Positions 3,687 to 20,478 of a stretch of 20,478 nt of DNA are shown piece after piece; the stretch's first letter is position 1; the number at the start of each line of letters is the position of its first letter. Both the position numbers and the translations under genes were made by a program. The notes beneath the pieces were generated by a model, which worked only from the letters and a program-made list of their open reading frames with translations, was not told the DNA's origin and ran no database searches. This DNA comes from a virus. The stretch lies in the UHGV virus genome UHGV-0138524, one strand, 5' to 3'.

Positions 3687-3992
3687 TTATTTGCGCATTC
3701 TGATGTGATTTAACAGGTGTTTGATAACGACTGATAGCTCATCTTTACCGGCCTGCTCGACCATTTTTGCGGTGTAGCTTTCCACCTCGCGAGAGCTCAG
3801 GTCGTTATTTAAAGCCATTAAAGTCAGATTCTTTGCCCAATCGGCAAACGGGTCATTTTTCGATGAAAGGGGATTTTGCATGTACAAAAACCTCGAATTA
3901 TTTAACCAGCAGACGGTTGAAGTATTTGCGACGCTATGACCGGCTAACGCCTCGCGTAGCTCGTTGTTCAACCCCGCCAGCACTGAAAGCAA
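3687..3992 (-). CDS. Hypothetical 101-aa protein in the SOS operon (TTG start as called)
   Basis: ORF downstream of the DinI-like gene in the same orientation; no family recognised. Confidence 0.4.
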   Translation of the reverse strand: MLSVLAGLNNELREALAGHSVANTSTVCWLNNSRFLYMQNPLSSKNDPFADWAKNLTLMALNNDLSSREVESYTAKMVEQAGKDELSVVIKHLLNHIRMRK

Positions 3993-4014
3993 GTTTCAGC
4001 ACCGGCGGCGTTTG

Positions 4015-4248
4015 TTAATGCAGCCAGCTATCGTCCTCCCATACCTGCTGCATGATTTCCATTACTCGTTTTTTATCTTCGTCCAGTTTCAAACCGCTTA
4101 GTTCAACGCCATTAGCGGAGCCCTTGCGAATTCGGATAGCAGTCTTTGGGTAAATAGGTTGAAGATTGCGGTACAGTTCAGCCTCAAGTGCATCCAATGT
4201 TGCCTGACTAATTTTTTGCTCTTTATCCAACGTGATATTGATTCTCAT
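4015..4248 (-). CDS. DinI-family protein (DNA-damage-inducible protein I-like; Tum-like module)
   Basis: 77-aa MRINITLDKEQKISQATLDALEAELYRNLQ...KKRVMEIMQQVWEDDSWLH resembles E. coli DinI and the DinI-like part of 186 Tum. Confidence 0.65.
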   Translation of the reverse strand: MRINITLDKEQKISQATLDALEAELYRNLQPIYPKTAIRIRKGSANGVELSGLKLDEDKKRVMEIMQQVWEDDSWLH

Positions 4249-8823: not shown

Positions 8824-9670
8824 TATGTCTAAAAATGATGTTAATGCGTCTGCCGCATTGGAACGTGTCCTTTCTGCATACGGCTTTAAGCAGCAAAAGG
8901 AACTAGCCGAAAGGCTTGGCATACATGCAAACAACGTGAGTAGCTGGCTTGCTAGAAACGTAATCCCTAGCAACGTTTTCGTTGAGTGTGCTCTTGATAC
9001 TGGAGCTGACCTGCGATGGCTAATTAATGGTGAGCTTGCAAATGCAAGATTTGAAGTGGTGAAAACTAAGCTTAAAGGTAAGCAACTCTATGATGAAATC
9101 ATGGCAAATGGAGGGAGGGCGGTTCTGCGTCGGATTCTCGATGCGTATGGTTTTACTCTGCAAAAAGAGCTTGGAGATTTATTAGGTATATCTTCCGGCA
9201 CTATAAGCACTTGGGTTAGACGCGATTTTTTCCCCGGTGACGTGGTTGTCACTTGCGCCCTTGATACTGGCGTATCGTTAGAATGGTTATCAACCGGAAA
9301 AGGCCAGATGCGTAACAGTAATGATGGTGAACCGGCAAATGCTTTAACGATTAGAAAGTGCCGCCTCGAGGCTGGCGAACTCAAAGATATCGGACGCTGG
9401 ACTCCTGATATATCTATGGTTCCATCAAATACTGATGATTTAGTGTTTATTGATGGTGTGAGCACATCTTGGCTTGTTGATAGTTCTAACTCGAAGATAG
9501 GAAATGGTCGCTGGCTTATTGGTATTGATGGCGCACTCGATGTTTTTGACGTAATCAGGTTGCCAGGCGGAAAGGTCAGGTTATCAAATAAGTCTGCTGA
9601 GTTTGAATGTAATATTTCAGATATCACACCATCAGGTGCGGTTATTTTTACTTTGGAAAAGCATGTTTAA
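8824..9670 (+). CDS. CI-type immunity repressor (186 CI-like) with a tandemly duplicated N-terminal DNA-binding domain
   Basis: From the internal ATG at 8824 (MSKNDV...); repeat 1 LERVLSAYGFKQQKELAERLGIHANNVSSWLARNVIPSNVFVECALDTGADLRWLINGE and repeat 2 LRRILDAYGFTLQKELGDLLGISSGTISTWVRRDFFPGDVVVTCALDTGVSLEWLSTGK; the track ORF starts at 8636, inside the upstream gene. Confidence 0.65.
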
Positions 9671-11332: not shown

Positions 11333-11551
11333 TCAAAGCCAAAGTTGCTGTTGTTGGTTTCTGATGGGGTGTGGCGGAGCAGGATCAACAGTACCCGGTT
11401 TCACAATGAATCTTGATAGCGTCTCAAAAGTGATAAATGTACATCCGCAATTTATGTTCTGGCACTGGTGATAACGTTCTTTTGTTTCGGTGCTAAGGTA
11501 CCGGCTAGTGCGAGCATGTGCGGCGTTTTGGCATAACGGGCAGTGCATCAT
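11333..11551 (-). CDS. ogr: Ogr/Delta-family zinc-finger late-gene activator
   Basis: 72 aa MMHCPLCQNAAHARTSRYLSTETKERYHQCQNINCGCTFITFETLSRFIVKPG... closely resembles P2 Ogr; GGGGA upstream of this Met; the track ORF starts 15 codons further upstream. Confidence 0.85.
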   Translation of the reverse strand: MMHCPLCQNAAHARTSRYLSTETKERYHQCQNINCGCTFITFETLSRFIVKPGTVDPAPPHPIRNQQQQLWL

Positions 11552-11626
11552 AATTATTTCCCCTGCTGGCGTATCTGAGGGAATAATAAACTTCAAAATT
11601 GCATTTGCAAGTTTTGGTTTGCTTTT

Positions 11627-12796
11627 TCACTCCTCATTTTCTTCTGAGCTGTACTCCACATCGGAGAGTTTAACCTCAAGCTCTAAGCCCGTCGTGAAAC
11701 CGTTATTATTGAGGTTGTGGGTCACCTTGCTGATTAACCATGCCTGCTCGTCTATGACGCGCTTAAAGCCTGACACGCGTACAGGCGTCTCAGGAAATAA
11801 ATCCGCTCGCCCTAGCGCCAGTGTGATTGAAAACTCCGCAACACCTCGCTGCAGTTTATCCCACTTAGCCTGAGCGGCGCGCATCGCCTGTGCCTTTGAG
11901 GCATAGACTGTCGTCAGCGCCAGCACGTTATCGGCTTCACCGGCCATGTACTCACCCTCACGTGCTTCCTGTTCTTTTTTGACCTTTGTCTTTTTGCTGA
12001 CCGGCTTTGCTTTTGGGTGTTCCAGTGCGCGCAGGTGCTTCTCTTTTGGCTTGCGTTTCAGCGTTACTTTCTGCTTTTGTGGCTTCGGGTCTTTGGTGTG
12101 CAACCATTTAGCAGTGACGCCGGTATAAGCCCCACGGTCGGCAATGGCAAACTGATGACGGTCACCATCACTGCGGGTCAGCGTCATTTGCGGGACGGGT
12201 TTGCCGCTGGCCGTCATCGCACTACCGGCTTTCAGAAACAACAGTTTCCCTGCCTTCACCGATACCGTTGCCCCGTTGCGGTCAGCCAGTCGACTCAAAA
12301 ATACCGCGTCGGATTCCTGCGACTGGTCGATATGCGGTACCGGGATTTTTTTCAGCGATTCCGCAATGCTGGCCGTCAGTTTGTTGCGCTTTGCGATGGT
12401 ACTGACCAGTTCGCCGATGGTGGTGTCGTGCCATGACTCTTCACGCCTGGAATTTAGCGTGCCGCGAAAGTCCGCGCTGCGCGCCCGGATGGTCAGGGTA
12501 TCAGGAGCCCCCCGGTGCTCAATCTCATCGACCGTAAAATCCCCCTTATTCAGCAGCGCCGAACCCTGCCAGCCAAGCCACAACGTCAGCACTGCCCCGC
12601 GCAGGGGTAACTCGACTTTCCCATCGGTGTCATCGAGCTCAATGTCGAGCTGGTCAGCTTCAAAGCCCCTATTGTCCGTCATGGTGAGAGAAATCAGCCG
12701 GTCGCTGAAGTTGCTGGTAATGTCCTGACTGTTCAGCGTCAGCATAAAAGCCGGTGCAAGGCTGGCACCGGCGTCAATTGCCATCCCCGTTATCAT
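11627..12796 (-). CDS. D: Tail protein D (P2 gpD-like late control/tail protein)
   Basis: 389-aa ORF in conserved P2 order (ogr-D-U-T); sequence resembles gpD. Confidence 0.8.
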   Translation of the reverse strand: MITGMAIDAGASLAPAFMLTLNSQDITSNFSDRLISLTMTDNRGFEADQLDIELDDTDGKVELPLRGAVLTLWLGWQGSALLNKGDFTVDEIEHRGAPDTLTIRARSADFRGTLNSRREESWHDTTIGELVSTIAKRNKLTASIAESLKKIPVPHIDQSQESDAVFLSRLADRNGATVSVKAGKLLFLKAGSAMTASGKPVPQMTLTRSDGDRHQFAIADRGAYTGVTAKWLHTKDPKPQKQKVTLKRKPKEKHLRALEHPKAKPVSKKTKVKKEQEAREGEYMAGEADNVLALTTVYASKAQAMRAAQAKWDKLQRGVAEFSITLALGRADLFPETPVRVSGFKRVIDEQAWLISKVTHNLNNNGFTTGLELEVKLSDVEYSSEENEE

Positions 12797-13278
12797 GCAG
12801 TGAAACCTCCGGGCATACCCTGCAGTTTATCTGTCAAATTACCGGCAGAGCCGAGAAGCTCACTGGCCTGTTTATTCAGGTCACCAAACATCTCTGTCAG
12901 CGATTCATCAACCCGTTTTAGCGAAAGCGTGAAATCAATCTTTCTGGCCGCACCATCACTGAAAAACTCGGTGCGTGTAGTCGATACTTTATCGACGATA
13001 TACATCCCGAGGATATTTCCGGTTCCCTCTATCAACGGCCACGCTCTGCCTTCATTGGCCATCACCTCTACAGCCTTAAGTGAGATCCAACCGCCAGTGA
13101 TAGCGGGGTATAGCGTACCAGCAAGCTGTATAGAGGTTTCCCCCTCGCCAAGAAACTGATAGGCAGGTGGTTTACCCACCCGGTCATTGGACACCCAGCG
13201 ATAATCTTTCGAATGCTGCATCGACTGGTAAGGCAGGGTGCGAAGTTCAAACACAAACATTCCGAGAGCAAGCATCAT
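12793..13278 (-). CDS. U: Tail protein U (P2 gpU-like)
   Basis: 161-aa ORF overlapping the D start; order and sequence resemble gpU. Confidence 0.8.
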   Translation of the reverse strand: MMLALGMFVFELRTLPYQSMQHSKDYRWVSNDRVGKPPAYQFLGEGETSIQLAGTLYPAITGGWISLKAVEVMANEGRAWPLIEGTGNILGMYIVDKVSTTRTEFFSDGAARKIDFTLSLKRVDESLTEMFGDLNKQASELLGSAGNLTDKLQGMPGGFTA

Positions 13279-13291
13279 CGTTTAATCCCCC

Positions 13292-15734
13292 TCAATAGTC
13301 GTGGGTCATGTTGGCACGCTGGCGGGCGCGTTTATCGCGCTCAATCTGTTCGAGCGTGTCGCGTAGTTGTCTGTCAAGCTGATGCCCCGGCGCAACACCT
13401 CCCGGCAGATTGATGTTGTATTCGCTTTTGCTCTGGTCAATGTAAGAGCGCCCCGCCGGTGCGGTAACTGGCTGATAAGCCTGATAGCCGCCATATGTGC
13501 TGGTTGCCGGGATGTAGGAATTACCCTGTGTGGCGGCATTGGTTTTGGCGGCGGTCTGGTCGAGGCTGTCCGACTCTTTGTTGATGATGCCGAGCTTTTC
13601 GAGAAGCCAGTCGACACCGCTGCGCAGCTTGTTAAAAACATTGAGCGGAGCCATCAAGGCAGAGGCCAGTGCCTGACCAAATATGACGCCGACACTTTTG
13701 CAGCTATCAAGCGTTTCCTGCGTGGCCTTAACCGGTGCTATCAGGTCTTTAAACCACTGCCAGACGCCGCGCAGTTTCTCGCCGAGACCATCAAAAATGG
13801 GAGCCAGTGGAGCGAACATTTCCCCGACTGGGGCAAAGGCACTCATGATGCCCTCAATCACTCCCGAGAAAAATGCGCTGATGGGCTCCCAATATTTACG
13901 GATGAGTAGCGCCCCCGCCACAATCGCCGCACCGACGGCCACTATCGGCCAGGTAATCGCACCGAGCGCTGTCGCAATGGCACTACCGACGACAGTAAAG
14001 ACCGTACCCAGCACGCCAGCAGCGGCGATAATGGCATTAATCCCCATGACAACCGGCCACGCAACGAGACCAATGCCGCCGATGATACCAATCAGCGCCA
14101 GCGCACCACCGGCGATGATGCCGATAGTTTCCGCTAACTCCTTGTTGTCTTTGATCCAGTCATCAAGCTTTAGCACATACCGTGTTGCTGTCTGAGTTAG
14201 CTGACGCAATGAGCTATCTTGCTGGTCGTAGAGGTCGGTACCGACGGCCTCATAAGCGGATTGAAACTCTTTGAAGTCGCCACCTAAGTTATCCTGCATA
14301 ATTTTAACAAGCTCTGCGGTTTTTCCGTCTGAGGCTTTCAGGGTGGAGGTTAGCTGGTCAAGTTTGCCGGTTGAGGCGGCAGTCATGAGCACCGCCGCCG
14401 CCGAACTGGCTTCCTCACCGAATATCGTTTTCATGTATTCGGCTTGTTGACCGGTGCCGAGATTGTTACGCTCAAAACTGGCCTGCATTTCCTTGAGGAT
14501 GGTAAAAATCGGGCGCGTGTTGCCTTTACTGTCGGAAGTTTTGACCCCCAGCTCCTTAAGCGCATCCCACGCTTTACCGGTCGGAGCCTGCAGGCGGCTT
14601 AAAACCGCACGGCTCCCGGTGCCGGCCATCGAGCCGGTGATTTTGGCGTCATGCAGGGCGCCCACCATTGCGGCAGTTTCTTCAATGCTGACACCGGCAT
14701 TTTTCGCCACCGGCGCGGCGTATGTCAGCGCATCGCTCAGCCCGTCGAAATCGGCAGCAGTTTTATTCATCACCGTCGACAGAACGTCGCCAATGTGCGC
14801 CACCTTGTCATTGGAAAGCTGAAACGCAGAGCGCATCCCCATCAGTAATGCGGCGTTTTCTTCCATCGTGCGACGGTTGGCAAGCGCCATATTGAGGGTG
14901 ACCGGTGTCGTCGCCTGAATGGCTGCCGCATCGCCGCCCCCTTTGGCGATAATAATCTGCGCACTGGCTGCATCATCAGCAGAAGCGGCTGTATTGTCAC
15001 CGAGCTGGCGTGCCTGTTTGCGTAGCGCCTCCATTTCTGGCGACTGCTTATCGACCCCGAGCACGGCCTGCAGCTCGGAATTTTTCTGCGCAAAGTCATA
15101 ACCGGGCATCAGTAATTTCACCCCGGCCATCGTTCCCGCTGTCGCGATACCTACCCCGGCAGCCCCTGCAGCGGCCATGTTACCGGCAAGCTCCTTGCCT
15201 GATTTATATCGCTCTTTCACCCGGCCTAATTTCGCCTGCTGCGCACTGACGCGCGAGTGCCTCACGCTGGCGGTTAAGCTGCGCCGTCGTTTCGCTGATG
15301 GAGGTTTTGAGCCGACGCTCATCGGCAGAAAGGGTGCGGGTATTAATACCGGCCTGCATCAGTTCGGAGCGCTGGCGCTGTACAGACGTTCTCAGACTGT
15401 TGTACTTCGTCTGTAGCTCAGAGGCAGCACGCTTTGCCGCTTCGAGTGCCTGCGCCTGCGCGCGGGTCGGACTGGTGGAGTTTTTAAACTGCACGGCCAG
15501 TTCACCGGCTTCGCGTTTCGCTTTCTCAAGCGCCTGACTGGTCACGGCCAGTTGCGCACTGGCCTTACGAAAGCCGTCGATTTTTGACGCCTGACCATTC
15601 AGGTCACGCAGCCCTTTTTGTGTTTCGCGAATATCGCCCGACAGGGTTTTACTCGCGGTCTGGATGGATTTAAGCGGTCGGGTCGCCTGGTCGACCGCTT
15701 TCAGCAAAACCTCAAGTCTCAGGTTATTACTCAT
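13292..15734 (-). CDS. T: Tail tape measure protein (P2 gpT-like), frame interrupted near 15250-15256 (two overlapping ORFs, 15734->15204 and 15322->13292); possible pseudogene
   Basis: N-terminal ORF ends ...NRQREALARQCAAGEIRPGERAI*; the second frame continues ...RVSAQQAKLGRVKERYKSGKELAGN...; hydrophobic Gly/Ala-rich segments typical of tape measure proteins. Confidence 0.75.
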
Positions 15735-16214
15735 TGTGGTGTCCGCTACGCTGCAGCGCCTTTTCGCGCCATGTGATGAGCTCGGTCAGGCTCAGGGAAT
15801 AGAGCTCTGATAGCGGCCAGTGGAATATCACCGCGATATCCGCCATCAGGTCATCGGTCGACAGGTCGGGCGGGAAATCTACTCCGCCGAAGCCGGTGAC
15901 AAAAAACCAATCACCTTAGCGGCCAGCGACAGCATATCGGGCAGGTTCATTGCGGTAAGCTCCTGCGCCGTAAGCGCGGGGTAGGTCATGCGTGGCAATA
16001 CCTTAATCAGCGCATCGACTTCGGACTGCGCCACCGCTGCCAGACTGACACCGCGCAGGGTACCGGCGTTCGGCTCAATCAGTGTGACTTTATCAATCGT
16101 CTGACCGGCGCGCTTAATCGGCTTGTCGAGGGTCACGACGTTCGGGTTTACGGTGTCAATTTCATTGCCAGCCATATCAACAAATTCAGCGGTTTTACGT
16201 GGTGCTTTTGCCAT
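15727..16214 (-). CDS. E': E+E' fusion produced by programmed -1 ribosomal frameshift
   Basis: Slippery TTTTTTG on the minus strand (plus 15900-15906); the -1 frame continues FFVTGFGGVDFPPDLSTDDLMADIAVIFHWPLSELYSLSLTELITWREKALQRSGHHNE* and its stop overlaps the T start (ATGAGTAA). Confidence 0.65.
15879..16214 (-). CDS. E: Tail assembly chaperone E (P2 gpE-like)
   Basis: 111-aa ORF ending ...DMLSLAAKVIGFLSPASAE; position between FII and T. Confidence 0.75.
   Translation of the reverse strand: MAKAPRKTAEFVDMAGNEIDTVNPNVVTLDKPIKRAGQTIDKVTLIEPNAGTLRGVSLAAVAQSEVDALIKVLPRMTYPALTAQELTAMNLPDMLSLAAKVIGFLSPASAE
15900..15906 (-). promoter_or_regulatory. Slippery heptamer for the E/E' programmed -1 frameshift
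   Basis: T6G run on the coding strand near the 3' end of E, as in P2 and lambda G/GT. Confidence 0.6.
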
Positions 16215-16277
16215 GATGTTTTTCTCTGCTCTGAATGGGGATTAATAACCGGCCAGCAGTGCTGACCGGTCAGGGAA

Positions 16278-16796
16278 TTACAGCCCGATTGCGCGGCGGT
16301 GCTGTTCCAGACGGTCGACGCCGTTCACCTTCTCAACCATGTTGACGGTATCGATTTCGATGACGTCGCTACCATCAATCGTGAGGCGGTAATAGGTGCA
16401 TACGGTCGACAGTTTGGTCGAGGTGTTTTCACCCTGCTTATTCTCGCCGCCGTCGATTTCTTTATGACGGCCACGCATGACCACCTCGACCGCCACGATT
16501 TCGCCAGTGTCGTCACGTTGGTAAGAGCCAGCAAAACGCAACGGCACAGCGTCAGCACCCGGCGCGGCGTACTGCGCCCACAGCGCCACATCAGGCAGGC
16601 CACCGACAGACCATTCGACGGTGAGCGCATCATCGTCGAGACCAAGGTCAATCGCCGCCGCGCCATTCATGCCGCCGCCGCGATAGTTTTCGAGCTTGCG
16701 GGTCAGCTTCGGCAGCGTCACGGATTCAACAACGCCCATGTAGCTAAGGCCGTCATTGAACATGTTCAGATATTTAAGTTTGCGGGGTAGTGCCAT
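16278..16796 (-). CDS. FII: Tail tube protein (P2 gpFII-like)
   Basis: 172-aa ORF directly downstream of the sheath gene; sequence resembles FII. Confidence 0.8.
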   Translation of the reverse strand: MALPRKLKYLNMFNDGLSYMGVVESVTLPKLTRKLENYRGGGMNGAAAIDLGLDDDALTVEWSVGGLPDVALWAQYAAPGADAVPLRFAGSYQRDDTGEIVAVEVVMRGRHKEIDGGENKQGENTSTKLSTVCTYYRLTIDGSDVIEIDTVNMVEKVNGVDRLEQHRRAIGL

Positions 16797-16811: not shown

Positions 16812-17990
16812 TTAGCTGTTGACCGATTCGGCCAGATTTACCAGATATTTATCGGTGATACGCTGGCGCAGGGTCAGGCTTTCCAGTGGTGGAACCGGTG
16901 TATAGTCGTAGTCGATATACAGTTTCCCGGCCTTGAGGGTTTCCTTATCGTTCGATTCCTCGTCAAACCAGCATTCACCGTCCACGATGTAGCCGTTTGA
17001 TTTCAGCTCGCGGAATTTGGCGTTAATGCCGTCGACAATGTCACGGATAAGTGATGCGGTGATGGGCTTATCGACCGCCCACATGTGCGCCTCGGCCATC
17101 GTGTCGGCCAGCACCTGCGCGGTGCGGGTGTAGTTCTCAAACAGGAAAAGCGGGTCATCAGAGCAGGTGCGGTTACCCCAAAAGCGGAAGCCATCCTTAC
17201 GCACCAGTGTTGTGAGCCCGGCCTCGTTGAGCAGATCAGCATCGGTGCCGGATGCCTGCAAATCCCAAAACACTGACGCACTGATGCCGGTAACACCCTG
17301 CACGCCGATGTTAGACAGGGTTTTGTGCCAGCCGACGGTCTGGTCGATATAGGCACGCAGGCCGAGTGCGCGCGCAGTTGCGTATGCCGGTGCGGTGGCG
17401 TTTGTGGTGGTATCCCATGCAAGGAAATCAGGCCAGATGACCATCAGCTCGCGCTGGCTGAAATTCTCGCGATAGGCCATCGCCTCGGAAATGGTTTTAC
17501 AACCCCATGCGCTGATATAGCCAAAGGCGCGCAGGCTGATACAGACCGAAGCAAGTGCGACTGCGACCTCTTTGGTATCGAGACCCGGCACGCCGAGAAT
17601 GCGCGGCTTAACGCCGGTGACTGCTTCGGCAGTCAACAGCGCCTTGATGCCGGTATATTTACCGCTCTCATCCGTGCCGCCGATGATATTGGAAATGGTC
17701 TGCGCTTCGGCGTCTTCTCCGGTACCTTCGGCAACACGCACGACAACTGTGACAGGTTTTGACTGGTCGGCGATGGCCTGCAGGGAGGCAGACAACGTGC
17801 CTTTTTTACCGGCTTTTGCAATGGCGCTCTGCACATTGGTAATCAATACCGGTTCGTTGAGGGGGAATGTCTCGGCATCCGCATCGCTGGCCGTGCAGAC
17901 CATGCCGACAATTGCGGTTGCAACAGTGGAAATGACGCGGGTGCCGTCGTTAATCTCAAGCACCTGCACGCCGTGGTGAAAATCACTCAT
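16812..17990 (-). CDS. FI: Tail sheath protein (P2 gpFI-like)
   Basis: MSDFHHGVQVLEINDGTRVISTVATAIVGMVCTASDADAETFPLNEPVLITNVQ... closely resembles P2 FI; start taken at the Met at 17990 (GGAG upstream) rather than the track start at 18017. Confidence 0.85.
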   Translation of the reverse strand: MSDFHHGVQVLEINDGTRVISTVATAIVGMVCTASDADAETFPLNEPVLITNVQSAIAKAGKKGTLSASLQAIADQSKPVTVVVRVAEGTGEDAEAQTISNIIGGTDESGKYTGIKALLTAEAVTGVKPRILGVPGLDTKEVAVALASVCISLRAFGYISAWGCKTISEAMAYRENFSQRELMVIWPDFLAWDTTTNATAPAYATARALGLRAYIDQTVGWHKTLSNIGVQGVTGISASVFWDLQASGTDADLLNEAGLTTLVRKDGFRFWGNRTCSDDPLFLFENYTRTAQVLADTMAEAHMWAVDKPITASLIRDIVDGINAKFRELKSNGYIVDGECWFDEESNDKETLKAGKLYIDYDYTPVPPLESLTLRQRITDKYLVNLAESVNS

Positions 17991-18088
17991 CCGGTTAACT
18001 CCGTGGTTAGTGGGCAAGTGTTATTGTCCTGGCTGGTCTGTTGAGGGGCTATTTGTCAGTGTTGGGTGATGTCTGACACATTGAGACA

Positions 18089-18331
18089 TCAGCAACGGAT
18101 GCGGGAAATTTTTTGTATAGCGTTGAGATACCCGAGGCGATCCAGTTTCCAGACCACAAGCGTATCGCCCTCTGACAAGGTTCTGAGTAACCTCTTTAGC
18201 CCCGGCCAGTCTGATGTTTTGCCGCTGATTTTATCTTCGAAAATCAGCTCGCATCCTGCGCACTCCAGTTCATTTCGCTGTAATGCGGTGTTCTGGTCAT
18301 TTGTTGATACACGTACATAACCGATAAACAT
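18089..18331 (-). pseudogene. Serine DNA invertase (Gin/Hin/Pin family), 3'-truncated remnant
   Basis: MFIGYVRVSTNDQNTALQRNELECAGCELIFEDKISGKTSDWPGLKRLLRTLSEGDTLVVWKLDRLG then unrelated residues and a stop; homologous to the first ~70 codons of the intact invertase at 20066. Confidence 0.75.
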
Positions 18332-18385
18332 GAGAAATAACCCGGTAAAAAGTCGGGATCATGCCAGCTGAACGGAATATCTGCA

Positions 18386-18411
18386 TTTTCTAAAAGGTTG
18401 GTTTAGGAGAT
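18386..18411. other. Crossover site M (degenerate outer half-site) bordering the invertible segment
   Basis: TTTTCTAAAAGGTTGGTTTAGGAGAT; the inner half GGTTTAGGAGA matches sites L and R, the outer half reads AAAGG instead of AAACC. Confidence 0.55.
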
Positions 18412-18765
18412 GCGGCAAAAAAAAATGTTGGCACTGGTTCCGGACAGATTCCGGACATGTCTTCATTTGGTAATCAGCGAGCCGATTCGGGGTATCAATA
18501 CCTGCCAGGCGGGTTAATTCTTCAATGGGCAATAGCCATAACGAGAACATCCCCAGAAACAGTATCATTCCCGATTGCGTTTCCAACCAGGGCGCTATGT
18601 GTTGTTGCAACAGACCAGAGTGTTGGGGGTACAGGTCAAGGTTTTGCGTTAACCGCCCAGGATTTTACGAGAACTAATTTCCAGCTACGCGCTTATCAGA
18701 CAGGAACCAACGCTGAATCATCCATCGGCGCTGGCGGGTTTAACTATTTTGCTGTGGGGTATTAA
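18394..18765 (+). CDS. Tail fibre C-terminal variable cassette (start-less Sv segment, silent in this orientation)
   Basis: Frame open from 18394: KVGLGDAAKKNVGTGSGQIPDMSSFGNQ...FNYFAVGY, paralleling the [19 protein letters not shown] junction of H; followed directly by a Tfa gene. Confidence 0.6.
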   Translation, partial: KVGLGDAAKKNVGTGSGQIPDMSSFGNQRADSGYQYLPGGLILQWAIAITRTSPETVSFPIAFPTRALCVVATDQSVGGTGQGFALTAQDFTRTNFQLRAYQTGTNAESSIGAGGFNYFAVGY

Positions 18766-18768
18766 TAA

Positions 18769-19200
18769 ATGGCTTATTTTTATTCAGCATTAAATAACGC
18801 TTTCTACCCTGATGAGCTCAGAGATGTTTATGAAGCGAGTAGAAACTGGCCTGACGATCTCATAGCCGTCTCAGATGAGACATTCACTGAATATTCGGGG
18901 ATGCCACCAGAGGGTAAAACTCGTGGAGCTACTGAGGATGGAATGCCGGCATGGGTAGACATTCCACCTTTAAGCCATGAGGAGGAAATCGCAGCAGCTG
19001 AAGCTGAAAAACAGTATCGTATCGATCAGGCTAATGAGTATATAAACAGCAAGCAGTGGCCGGGTAAAGCTGCGCTGGGGCGACTTACAGACGACGAGAA
19101 GGCCCAGTATAACGAGTGGCTGGATTATCTCGATGCGCTGGAATCTGTGGACATATCCAGCGCACCAGATATCAACTGGCCTGAGTCGCCGGAGGAGTAG
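18769..19200 (+). CDS. Tail fibre assembly protein (Tfa; Mu U / P2 G family)
   Basis: 143 aa ending ...[28 protein letters not shown], the characteristic Tfa C-terminus. Confidence 0.75.
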
Positions 19201-19603
19201 GCCAGTCCGGGTCTGCTGTATCAACTCGCATCAGCAGCACCCGGTATTTTTTCCATTCGGCTAATGAAACAGTTTCTTCTTCCGTCGCGATCCCCGCATC
19301 AACGGCGTCCTGCCGCCATTCTATTTCAGAGTCAGCTGAAGCACGCAGTCGCGATTTTTCGGCTTCTGCCAACGCAATAATTTCCTCTTCAGTTGGTTCG
19401 GGAATATCTATCCATTCAGGTAAACCATCAGAATTAGGAGCGCGTAATTTTCCGTTAGGTGATTCTCCGGCAAACTCAACGAATACGGAATAGTCTACTT
19501 CAACGGCATCGTCAGGCCAGCTACCTGCATTTTCATAAATACTTTTTAGCTCATCAGCGTAGAACGCATTTTCTTTTGCAGAATAAAACATATTAATCAC
19601 CAT
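19172..19603 (-). CDS. Tail fibre assembly protein, second (convergent) copy
   Basis: 143 aa ending ...[28 protein letters not shown]; 3' ends of the two Tfa genes overlap by 29 bp. Confidence 0.75.
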
Positions 19604-19946
19604 CCAATCGCGAAAACTCTAAAGCCACCGTAGCCAGCACATGTAATCTGAGTTCTTGTTACCGTCGTATAGTATGATCGGCCCACCGCTAAGCTATATG
19701 CGGCTGTAGAACTCAAATCAACTGCCCCAGTTGATACATCACTAAATAACGGAATCATGCACTCATTTGGGAATGCAATAGGGAAATTCGCAGTTACTGG
19801 TGTCACATAATCAGTTGTAGTAGCACCAAACCACTGCAATATGATCACCCGTTCTTTCCCGGCGACCATTGCCGGGATAGTCATATAGCCTGTAGAGCCG
19901 GTCACACACACCGCTGCGCCTAATTTTGCTCCCTCTCCCAAACCAA
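19597..19946 (-). CDS. Tail fibre C-terminal variable cassette (start-less S'v segment beginning at crossover site R)
   Basis: [30 protein letters not shown]...[10 protein letters not shown]; its first 17 residues are encoded by the 55-bp repeat also present at 1-55. Confidence 0.65.
19892..19946. repeat. 55-bp exact direct repeat, copy 2 (identical to 1-55)
   Basis: See copy 1. Confidence 0.9.
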
Positions 19947-19958
19947 CGTTTTCCGGAA
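19933..19958. other. DNA-invertase crossover site R (gix/hix-like)
   Basis: CTCTCCCAAACCAACGTTTTCCGGAA; core AAACC-AA-CGTTT; lies 107 bp upstream of the intact invertase. Confidence 0.65.
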
Positions 19959-20065
19959 GACATGGTTACTTCTGACGGTGCGGTACCAGACCTGCAGTAC
20001 AGCCAGAAATGACGATGCTCGATACAATGCGAGGGACTATGACATCTAAATAAAAGGGGATTTTT

Positions 20066-20478
20066 ATGCTGATCGGCTATGTAAGGGTGTCAACAAATGA
20101 CCAGAACACTGCGCTGCAAAGAAATGCGCTGGTAAGCGCAGGATGTGAACAAATATTTGAAGACAAAATAAGCGGCACTAAAGCGGAAAGGCCGGGGCTT
20201 AAGCGTTTATTACGGACCTTATCGGAGGGTGATACGCTGGTTGTCTGGAAGCTGGATAGGCTTGGCAGAAGTATGAAACACCTTATCACGCTTATAGAGG
20301 AGTTGCGGGAAAAAGGTGTTAATTTCCGTAGTCTGACAGACAGTATTGACACATCAACACCCATGGGGCGTTTCTTTTTTCACGTCATGGGGGCTTTAGC
20401 AGAAATGGAACGTGAATTAATTGTTGAGAGAACACTGGCCGGACTGGCAGCTGCACGCGAACAGGGACGCATTGGCGG
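20066..20478 (+). CDS. Serine DNA invertase (Gin/Hin/Pin/Cin family), 3' end outside the window
   Basis: MLIGYVRVSTNDQNTALQRNALVSAGCEQIFEDKISGTKAERPGLKRLLRTLSEGDTLVVWKLDRLGRSMKHLITLIEELREKGVNFRSLTDSIDT..., with the catalytic serine context YVRVST; AAAGGGGA upstream. Confidence 0.85.
   Translation, partial: MLIGYVRVSTNDQNTALQRNALVSAGCEQIFEDKISGTKAERPGLKRLLRTLSEGDTLVVWKLDRLGRSMKHLITLIEELREKGVNFRSLTDSIDTSTPMGRFFFHVMGALAEMERELIVERTLAGLAAAREQGRIG

Follow-up and report, generated by a model that had tools for sequence, protein, structure and literature searches.

An E/E' tail assembly chaperone pair of the phage 186/P2 type with a conserved, probable programmed -1 frameshift site next to a disrupted tape-measure gene

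The tail region of the virus genome UHGV-0138524 raises the question of whether its gene E is read in two frames, as in phage P2, and what an intact slip signal means when the tape-measure gene beside it is broken. In P2, a -1 shift at TTTTTTG yields E+E' (142 aa) alongside E (91 aa) (PMC3091744), a programmed frameshift for which PMC3091744 cites Christie et al. 2002, and P2-like phages of Burkholderia keep the slip site, with no hairpins downstream of it (PMC3091744). In the window, which is the whole stretch of 20,478 nucleotides analyzed here, the sequence indicates that E/E' is very probably the tail assembly chaperone pair of a 186/P2-type myophage with a programmed -1 frameshift. The P2-type E/E+E' frameshift is already known and is ordinary here. 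We use the P2 nomenclature for E, which equals gene H/orf51 of phage 186, and the features of the locus are listed in Table 1.

Table 1. Positions of the E/E' elements and the neighboring features in the window.
Feature	Position	Strand	Description
Tail tube gene FII	16796..16278	minus	Directly upstream of E; PF04985 Phage_tube, 9e-61
Conserved hairpin CCGGTCAGCACTGCTGGCCGG	16269..16249	minus	FII-E intergenic; homologue of 186 tI, by alignment with 186 and P2
Gene E	16214..15879	minus	ATG 16214, TAG 15881..15879, 111 aa; tail assembly chaperone (predicted), zero-frame product
SD-like AAGGTGAT	15917..15910	minus	Ends 3 nt upstream of the heptamer; putative, possible 5' slip modulator
Slippery heptamer T_TTT_TTG	15906..15900	minus	Codons 104-105 of E, offset 308 from ATG
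E' extension	15900..15727	minus	-1 frame, 57 sense codons from GTC (15900..15898), TAA 15729..15727
ATGAGTAA overlap	15734..15727	minus	T ATG 15734..15732 interleaved with E' stop 15729..15727; 8 nt
Tape-measure gene T	15734..13292	minus	186 gene G homologue; PF10145 PhageMin_Tail, 6e-44; predicted client of the E/E+E' chaperones

Both parts of the locus had clear homologues. The E protein matched Pfam PF10109 (Phage_TAC_7) in the Pfam scan (E = 1.2e-11, 44.9 bits versus a cutoff of 25) and phrog_103 'tail protein' in PHROG (7e-43), and the zero-frame product was 95% identical to 186 orf51 and 69% identical to P2 E over the aligned part. The E' part matched PF06528 (Phage_P2_GpE) at residues 124-159 of the fusion (E = 9.1e-20, 70.3 bits versus a cutoff of 23) and phrog_1756 (1.3e-23). 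A comparison with solved structures gave no PDB relative of E+E' at E <= 1 except a spurious match to FabG.

A preliminary description of this DNA had reported a slippery T6G near the end of E, and this site was present on the minus strand and in phase. Because the zero-frame codons read GGT TTT TTG, the heptamer lies in the canonical X_XXY_YYZ phase. It is 8 codons from the E stop, with 6 codons between the heptamer codons and the TAG. Past the slip, the -1 frame reads GTC ACC GGC, and E codons 1-105 together with E' make up a fusion of 162 aa. The -1 frame was open as previously described; it contained 57 sense codons, however, and the earlier figure of about 58 codons includes the stop. The description also held in that this frame terminates in an overlap of its TAA with the ATG of T, and the span originally assigned to the locus (15727-16214) ran exactly from the E start to the E' stop. 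Another in-phase heptamer, A_AAC_CCG at E codon 22, was rejected as a frameshift site, its -1 extension being only 9 codons long.

The combination of the motif with a long -1 ORF was rejected as stand-alone evidence, since it is common in shadow ORFs and not rare by chance. TTTTTTG occurred 13 times in the window versus 6.6 ± 2.4 expected, and of the in-phase X_XXY_YYZ heptamers that this window contains within stop-to-stop ORFs of 100 codons or more, 24% were followed by a -1 extension that was 57 codons long or longer. The case is therefore carried by the homology of E' and by its conservation in relatives. Overall, 157/160 related loci, and all 79 complete viral-contig loci, kept TTTTTT[G/A] in phase and E' in the -1 frame, and the slip site was 8 codons, rarely 7, ahead of the E stop. 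The T6G site was identical in phage 186, Midge, 613R3, P2 and E. coli 1008S13, and the 5-nt offset between the T ATG and the E' stop was the same in 125/153 loci. Ten of ten distant Peduoviridae from other genera also kept the E' frame, so that a search for relatives lacking it, which the preliminary description had proposed, left its claim of a conserved frame standing. These distant -1 frames were 51-68 codons long (Burkholderia, Ralstonia, Stenotrophomonas, Shewanella, Zymomonas, Aeromonas and Vibrio phages) and were accompanied by an in-phase T6N heptamer in all these phages; Mannheimia has GGGAAAG instead. The -1 frame is under purifying selection. The pN/pS ratio was 0.24 in the E' frame versus 0.32 in the E body, diversity by codon position of the -1 frame was 0.067, 0.052 and 0.192 in E', peaking at the third position, and both other frames of the E' region contained stops in all 6555 pairs.

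The mechanism had previously been ascribed to P2 E/E'. The pair is indeed a homologue of P2 E/E+E', but by sequence the phage is 186-like (Eganvirus, Peduoviridae) and not P2 proper. Over the 701 nt of the E region, phage 186 was 94% identical in nucleotide sequence, and it shared the 111-aa E, TTTTTTG at the same codon, the 57-codon -1 extension, the ATGAGTAA overlap with its tape-measure gene G, and the upstream tI hairpin. Its E' differed from that of the window at extension residues 7 (V/I), 12 (D/G), 30 (L/P) and 54 (H/N), and its tape-measure gene is intact, whereas that of the window is broken. The annotation of 186 describes orf52 as 'probably produced by a translational frameshift from orf51', and Midge has the same layout, annotated as a joined CDS ('tail assembly chaperone') with a -1 frameshift. 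The comparison with the P2 slip site that had been suggested earlier bore out the assignment: both phages have TTTTTTG at 8 codons from the E stop, an E' of 57 codons that runs into T at ATGAGTAA, and matches to the same Pfam families, and they have the E' core DDLMAD.AVIFHWPPSELY...LTELITWREKAL in common. The P2 RefSeq record marks the 'site of -1 translational frameshift' and an 'essential tail protein'. P2 differs in that its E is 91 aa long and lacks an N-terminal segment of about 20 residues found in the 111-aa E here, so that the fusion has 142 aa there and 162 aa here, with about 70% amino-acid identity; pS between P2 and the window was 0.54 in the E body.

Xu, Hendrix and Duda reportedly described the lambda G/GT-type frameshift in 2004 as a conserved tail-chaperone class. 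This class is also described in PMC3091744 and PMC5009743, and the mechanism, the chaperone role and a fixed ratio of 30:1 are given for lambda G/GT in PMC5009743. The window shares with the class two overlapping ORFs, their place after the major tail gene and before the tape-measure gene, and a slip site near the end of the first ORF. Lambda differs in its heptamer, G_GGA_AAG, which among P2-type relatives was found only in Mannheimia, and in being a siphovirus, whereas the window phage is of the contractile-tail type. No homology to lambda gpG/gpT was detected, the Pfam scan of E/E' giving PF10109 and PF06528 only, and the relation to lambda is one of position and function and could not be demonstrated by sequence here.

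The slip itself, the proportion of E to E+E' and the work of the two proteins as chaperones can be drawn for this phage from the P2 and lambda literature. On this basis, most ribosomes would translate E and stop at its TAG, and a minority would move back by one base at U_UUU_UUG, where the P-site tRNA-Phe (on UUU) and the A-site tRNA-Leu (on UUG) would both re-pair on UUU_UUU. These ribosomes would then read 57 more codons in the -1 frame and end inside the T start (ATGAGTAA), giving the 162-aa E+E' with an expected junction peptide of KVIGFLVTGFGG for a tandem ribosomal slip. If lambda G/GT is taken as the model, the E part that both products share would bind the tape-measure protein T, and the E' part would recruit tube subunits. 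The ratio of E to E+E' would be set by a fixed slip frequency, and both proteins would be absent from the finished virion.

As reported for P2, we found no RNA structure downstream of the site that was significant or supported by covariation. Single-sequence folds gave no significant stimulatory structure downstream (MFE z-scores of -1.36 and -1.06). RNAalifold with 37 diverse relatives gave a consensus of -9.4 kcal/mol with a helix formed by AGGUGAUUGG, upstream of the heptamer, and CCGAUGACCU, 49 nt downstream. This helix was rejected because its covariation was no better than in column shuffles (pair statistics of 238/500, 192/500 and 217/500), and it was further disfavored in that its 5' arm would sit inside the ribosome during the slip. 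Given that no downstream structure was detectable, efficiency would therefore have to rest on the heptamer, with or without the SD-like element upstream.

This SD-like element, AAGGTGAT, was predicted to pair with the anti-SD more strongly than any other part of the E/E' mRNA (-10.8 kcal/mol). The two codons in this block were unusually constant: codon -4 was AAG in 130/131 and codon -3 was GTG in 133/138 unique relatives, and, apart from the GGT of the heptamer, they showed the least synonymous variation among the 41 conserved degenerate codons of E. Other conserved Lys and Val codons of E varied freely. GGTG was found at an equal offset, under different amino acids, in P2-like phages of Ralstonia, Aeromonas, Vibrio and Klebsiella, and was absent at that offset in the Burkholderia, Stenotrophomonas and Zymomonas relatives. 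We tentatively suggest that AAGGTG(A/G)T may be a conserved rRNA-pairing (anti-SD) element tuning the efficiency of the E/E+E' slip in enterobacterial and some other P2-like phages, a reading to which we give less than even weight. A known parallel is the -1 frameshift of E. coli dnaX, whose A_AAA_AAG is also an X_XXY_YYZ tandem slip site, preceded by an SD-like element and followed by a hairpin (PMC3711429). However, no supported hairpin is present here, and the SD-like element of dnaX lies about 10 nt from the heptamer (stimulator range about 10-14 nt) versus 3 nt in the window, and therefore the stimulatory geometry of dnaX cannot be assumed. The two systems also differ in their products, the frameshifted dnaX product ending almost at once whereas that of the window gains 57 codons. 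A literature search found no earlier description of an SD-like element at TTTTTTG phage sites, which is no proof of novelty.

The surroundings of E/E' were those expected of a P2-type tail operon. The minus-strand gene order was sheath - tube - E/E' - tape measure - U - D - ogr, and E/E' sat between the tube gene FII and T, as expected of an FI-FII-E-T-U-D operon, with FII upstream setting the canonical tube - chaperone - tape-measure order. Pfam matches in the flanks were to the sheath, the tube (PF04985), the tape measure (PF10145), GpU (PF06995), GPD (PF05954) and Ogr. The hairpin between FII and E corresponds to tI, which the 186 record labels 'partial terminator of pJ transcript'; lacking a strong T-run, it escaped a simple scan for terminators.

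The tape-measure gene itself was broken through the loss of 2 bp between 15256 and 15255, a deletion that changed CTGGCGCGCGTC to CTCGCGCGTC in the alignment to E. coli 1008S13, 613R3 and phage 186. The zero frame of T stopped after 176 aa at 15204, and the rest was open in another frame (15322..13292). Among 153 loci, the T ORF of the window (176 codons) stopped far earlier than any other, the sole other early stop being that of locus L112 at 495 of 501 available codons. Over the 3.1-kb E-T region, the closest relative, E. coli 1008S13, differed by that deletion and two substitutions only, and the lesion is therefore either very recent or a sequence error, possibly introduced during the sequencing or assembly of a GC-dinucleotide run. 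With T disrupted, the chaperones may be without a functional client in this genome. The preliminary description had read the intact E/E' as a sign that the tail module is otherwise well maintained. This argument is weak: the lesion is too fresh for decay to have set in, and the intact pair therefore says little about maintenance.

The same data bear on whether the signal is a relic, that is, an intact element with no present function in a phage made defective by its tape-measure lesion, where decay has not yet had time to set in. The 2-bp deletion, unique among the relatives examined, and the E-T region that is otherwise two substitutions from E. coli 1008S13 are in keeping with such a state, and we regard it as possible, though on balance doubtful. 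The deletion may not be real, as noted above, and the other tail genes checked (sheath, tube, U and D) were complete ORFs with full-length Pfam matches. Moreover, relic status concerns the present usefulness of the element, not what it is or how it works.

Transcriptional slippage would yield a similar fusion by another path. RNA polymerase slipping on T6 would leave one extra U in the transcript, and the resulting U7 mRNA would carry E and E' in one frame, with a junction of ...GFF-VTG... and not ...GFL-VTG... (expected peptide KVIGFFVTGFGG). We consider this very improbable. The site is a homopolymeric T6 run, and T7 occurs in some relatives (Stenotrophomonas, Zymomonas), but bacterial RNA polymerase usually needs about nine or more residues to slip, and six are short for efficient slippage. 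The exact X_XXY_YYZ phase, which a polymerase would not require, was kept in 157/160 loci, and Mannheimia has the non-homopolymeric G_GGA_AAG, a lambda-type ribosomal slip site. Polymerase slippage is known as another route to such fusions (review, PMC5009743); the P2 site, however, is annotated and cited as a translational frameshift.

That E' is instead an independent 39-aa gene starting from an internal ATG (M124 of the fusion, 'MADIAVIFHW...') is hardly credible: PGAP and several phage records annotate that separate ORF, and the PF06528 match is confined to the residues from M124 onward, but the -1 frame was open through the 18 codons from the heptamer to this ATG in every locus examined, the stretch ahead of the ATG has conserved residues (G110, F114, P115, L118, D122 and L123), the Met is lost in Ralstonia (AAAD), Klebsiella Kp4849-2 (LVAD), Zymomonas (VVAD), Mannheimia (AIAD) and Vibrio (VEAD), all of which keep the -1 continuity with the heptamer, and the curated records of P2, KS14, Smp131 and Midge join the CDS.

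The probable ribosomal -1 frameshifting at T_TTT_TTG is of importance chiefly for annotation. Automatic pipelines (PGAP and several phage records) call E' a separate 39-aa 'GpE family' gene, and the E+E' of the window can be correctly annotated as a joined CDS once the site is confirmed. An intact chaperone pair beside a T gene with a fresh 2-bp deletion points either to a sequence error or to an inactivation that happened very recently. Should the deletion be genuine, the phage would be unable to build tails, however intact its slip signal. For the family, the mildly new observation is the synonymous constraint on the SD-like block, in a group of frameshift sites thought to work without stimulators; if the block does pair with rRNA to tune the slip, it would supply the stimulator 'missing' from the P2-family site, at a spacing far shorter than that of dnaX.

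The slippery heptamer TTTTTTG was found in phase near the end of E, and all E/E' features lay on the minus strand. The heptamer showed the canonical X_XXY_YYZ phase (zero-frame codons GGT TTT TTG) and was separated from the E stop by six codons (SPASAE). Read from the final G of the heptamer, the -1 frame was VTGFGGVDFPPDLSTDDLMADIAVIFHWPLSELYSLSLTELITWREKALQRSGHHNE; it closed after 57 codons with TAA (15729..15727), in overlap with the T start. The preliminary description had reported this arrangement as an intact P2-type E/E' programmed -1 frameshift; its span corresponds exactly to the distance from the E start to the E' stop, and the -1 frame is open as claimed, although its length of about 58 codons holds only if the stop is counted.

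Coordinates of the E/E' features and of the neighboring genes in the window
Feature	Position	Strand	Match or remark
Sheath	16812-18017	minus	Phage_sheath
Tube FII	16278-16796	minus	PF04985
E/E'	15727-16214	minus	PF10109, PF06528
E ORF	ATG 16214 to TAG 15881..15879	minus	111 aa
Shine-Dalgarno-like AAGGTGAT	15917..15910	minus	3 nt upstream of heptamer
Heptamer TTTTTTG	15906..15900	minus	offset 308 from E ATG, codons 104-105
T ATG	15734..15732	minus	interleaved with E' stop as ATGAGTAA
Tape measure T	13292-15734	minus	PF10145
GpU	12793-13278	minus	PF06995
GpD	11627-12796	minus	PF05954
Ogr	11333-11596	minus	PF04606

The E/E' pattern by itself was not beyond chance. TTTTTTG occurred 13 times in the window (expected, 6.6 ± 2.4), and 24% of the 49 in-phase X_XXY_YYZ heptamers in stop-to-stop ORFs of at least 100 codons could be extended in the -1 frame by 57 codons or more, mostly shadow ORFs sliding into a real gene. 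Therefore, the case for frameshifting rests on homology and conservation. The zero-frame E protein matched PF10109 (Phage_TAC_7, 'tail assembly chaperone proteins E...'; 1.2e-11), and the E+E' fusion additionally matched PF06528 (Phage_P2_GpE; 9.1e-20) over residues 124-159, which are encoded in the -1 frame only. Both parts fell into tail families of PHROGs (phrog_103 at 7e-43 and phrog_1756 at 1.3e-23).

The E/E' programmed frameshift is already known and widely annotated. The P2 RefSeq record contains a joined CDS ('E+E': shares amino terminus with gpE; -1 frameshift; essential tail protein') and a misc_feature ('site of -1 translational frameshift'), the phage 186 record describes orf52 as 'probably produced by a translational frameshift from orf51', and that of phage Midge holds a joined CDS, 'tail assembly chaperone'. 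According to PMC3091744, which sums up the original P2 work, P2 produces E (91 aa) and E+E' (142 aa) by a -1 frameshift at TTTTTTG; Burkholderia P2-like phages conserve this site, and no downstream hairpins are found. When the site was recomputed in P2, 186, Midge, Escherichia phage vB_EcoM-613R3 and the E. coli prophage 1008S13, TTTTTTG lay 8 codons ahead of the E stop in all five, the extension measured 57 codons, and the overlap with the tape-measure gene read ATGAGTAA; the window has each of these features in common with the P2 slip site. P2 E is shorter than the 111-aa E of the window because about 20 N-terminal residues are absent.

We then compared two sets of 80 loci, one taken from viral contigs and the other from bacterial contigs (one genome per species) that spanned many Enterobacterales genera. 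All 79 complete viral loci carried the in-phase heptamer and a 57-58-codon extension. In a motif-anchored, frame-agnostic search, 157 of the 160 loci had their E' domain shifted by -1 against the E frame and an in-phase TTTTTT[G/A] where the two overlap; the exceptions were a truncated contig (L061), a locus not caught by the E motif (L148) and an in-frame fusion (L094). In the last (Candidatus Symbiopectobacterium sp., NZ_PEHF01000066.1, 1470-1902), which is probably a degraded prophage, E and E' share a single uninterrupted reading frame at the T6 run (GCGCGGTTTTTTGACGCC), so that the long form alone could be made. Ten distant Peduoviridae (Burkholderia vB_BA, Burkholderia KS14, Ralstonia, Stenotrophomonas Smp131, Shewanella, a Zymomonas element, Klebsiella Kp4849-2, Aeromonas, Mannheimia and Vibrio) all kept a -1 E' frame of 51-68 codons and the E' core ..AD[IL]A.[IV]F..W....EL..W[RH]..[AL], and nine had an in-phase T6N heptamer. 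The exception, Mannheimia phage vB_MhM_2256AP1 (L174), lacks the T6 run and has an in-phase G_GGA_AAG at 682-688 followed by a 52-codon E' frame. This heptamer is of the lambda G/GT type, and the Mannheimia record itself mentions a slippery sequence there; by sequence, the slippery site is replaced in this phage and the frameshift kept. A conserved E' frame was accordingly present in relatives, so the refuting condition proposed in the preliminary description did not hold. Overall, the earlier observation is confirmed and its interpretation supported.

Diversity in the E'-only region (mean pairwise, n=68 unique same-length sequences) was 0.067, 0.052 and 0.192 at -1 frame codon positions 1, 2 and 3, respectively. 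Nei-Gojobori pN/pS (n=115 unique sequences) amounted to 0.24 in the -1 frame of E' and to 0.32 in the E body, and the two alternative frames of E' contained stop codons in all 6555 pairs. These substitution patterns and closed frames indicate that the E' -1 frame is a translated and constrained coding frame.

A ribosomal -1 tandem slip at U_UUU_UUG is the reading best supported by these sequence comparisons. Independent initiation of a 39-aa E', as in the PGAP annotation, is unlikely, since the 18 codons from the heptamer to that ATG are always open and conserved, whereas its Met is not conserved in distant relatives. Transcriptional slippage at T6 is likewise improbable, given the conserved strict codon phase of the heptamer and the non-homopolymeric, lambda-type heptamer of Mannheimia. 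The ribosomal slip would yield E as the majority product and a 162-aa E+E' as the minority fusion, with a predicted junction joining ...KVIGFL to VTGFGG.... By analogy with lambda G/GT (PMC5009743), E and E+E' would act as tape-measure chaperones at a fixed ratio and would not be incorporated into the virion.

A 3' stimulator was not supported at the E/E' site, in agreement with what PMC3091744 states for P2. The 100 nt 3' of the heptamer folded no better than shuffles (z = -1.36), and the z-score was -1.06 for a 91-nt segment across the slip site. RNAalifold on 37 sequences sharing <90% identity yielded nothing but a weak helix (-9.4 kcal/mol) with the slip site inside it, and this helix was rejected because its pair counts were no different from those of column shuffles. 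On the 5' side, AAGGTGAT was predicted to pair with the 16S 3' tail more strongly than any other stretch of the E/E' mRNA (-10.8 kcal/mol, compared with -7.3 for the dnaX element by the same calculation). Its synonymous sites were the most conserved of 41 conserved degenerate E codons, the heptamer's own GGT excepted: AAG was used in 130/131 and GTG in 133/138 unique relatives (counts that ignore phylogeny), while other conserved E Lys codons showed AAG:AAA ratios of 72:36 and 56:76 and other Val codons varied freely. Among the distant relatives, GGTG occurred at the same offset in the Ralstonia, Aeromonas, Vibrio and Klebsiella Kp4849-2 phages with differing amino acids, and was missing in Burkholderia, Stenotrophomonas and Zymomonas. 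At 3 nt from the heptamer and 4 nt from the P-site codon, the block sits much closer than the dnaX element does (roughly 10 nt); its effect is therefore not predictable and could be stimulation, pausing or attenuation. The block may act as a 5' modulator of the frameshift, which we regard as a lead rather than a finding.

The gene row from sheath to Ogr is the P2/186 late F-operon; further along are an integrase and a CI repressor, both encoded on the plus strand, and replication gene A, encoded on the minus strand. Nucleotide comparison places the window with the 186-like phages: its E region shared 99.6% identity with vB_EcoM-613R3, ~95% with PSP3 and with Midge, and 94.2% with phage 186, and P2-proper relatives lay in a 60-80% band. 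A conserved hairpin (CCGGTCAGC...GCTGGCCGG, 16269..16249, minus strand) in the FII-E intergenic region aligned with phage 186 tI, for which the annotation reads 'partial terminator of pJ transcript', and P2 has it too; it probably lowers E-T-U-D expression relative to sheath and tube. The tail-fibre end (18089-20478) appears to have been rearranged. It holds an inverted repeat of 205 nt (18132-18336 and 20061-20265; 76% complementary) whose arms correspond to the 5' parts of two oppositely oriented serine-invertase genes, one truncated (18331..18089, minus strand) and one apparently intact (start ~20064, plus strand) that continues past the window end. Between the two genes lie mirrored sets of ORFs for the fibre C-terminus and for tail-fibre assembly, and the match to the otherwise 99.9%-identical 1008S13 prophage ends beyond ~18420.

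Comparison of 13200-16300 with 1008S13 showed two substitutions, at 15736 (E' residue 160, Q to H) and 14481, and one 2-bp deletion in T between 15256 and 15255 (CTGGCGCGCGTC to CTCGCGCGTC). The deleted bases are present in 1008S13, 613R3 and phage 186. As a result of the deletion, T ends after 176 aa, at 15204, and the remainder of the 815-aa protein (~650 codons) is open in another frame. Among 153 loci, T was interrupted earlier in the window than in any other; the only other early stop was at codon 495 of 501 available (L112). Either T was inactivated very recently, or the lesion is a sequence error in a GC-dinucleotide run. In both cases E/E' would be expected to be intact next to it, and its intactness does not show maintenance over the long term; the preliminary description's use of it as a sign of a well-maintained tail module is weak.

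PGAP and several GenBank phage records give E' a stand-alone ORF of 39 aa, named 'GpE family phage tail protein' (in relatives, the equivalent of window 15944-16063; 3955-4074 in locus L002 and 9455-9574 in locus L005). Calling a separate 39-aa E' instead of a joined E+E' CDS constitutes a systematic annotation gap for the E/E' frameshift.
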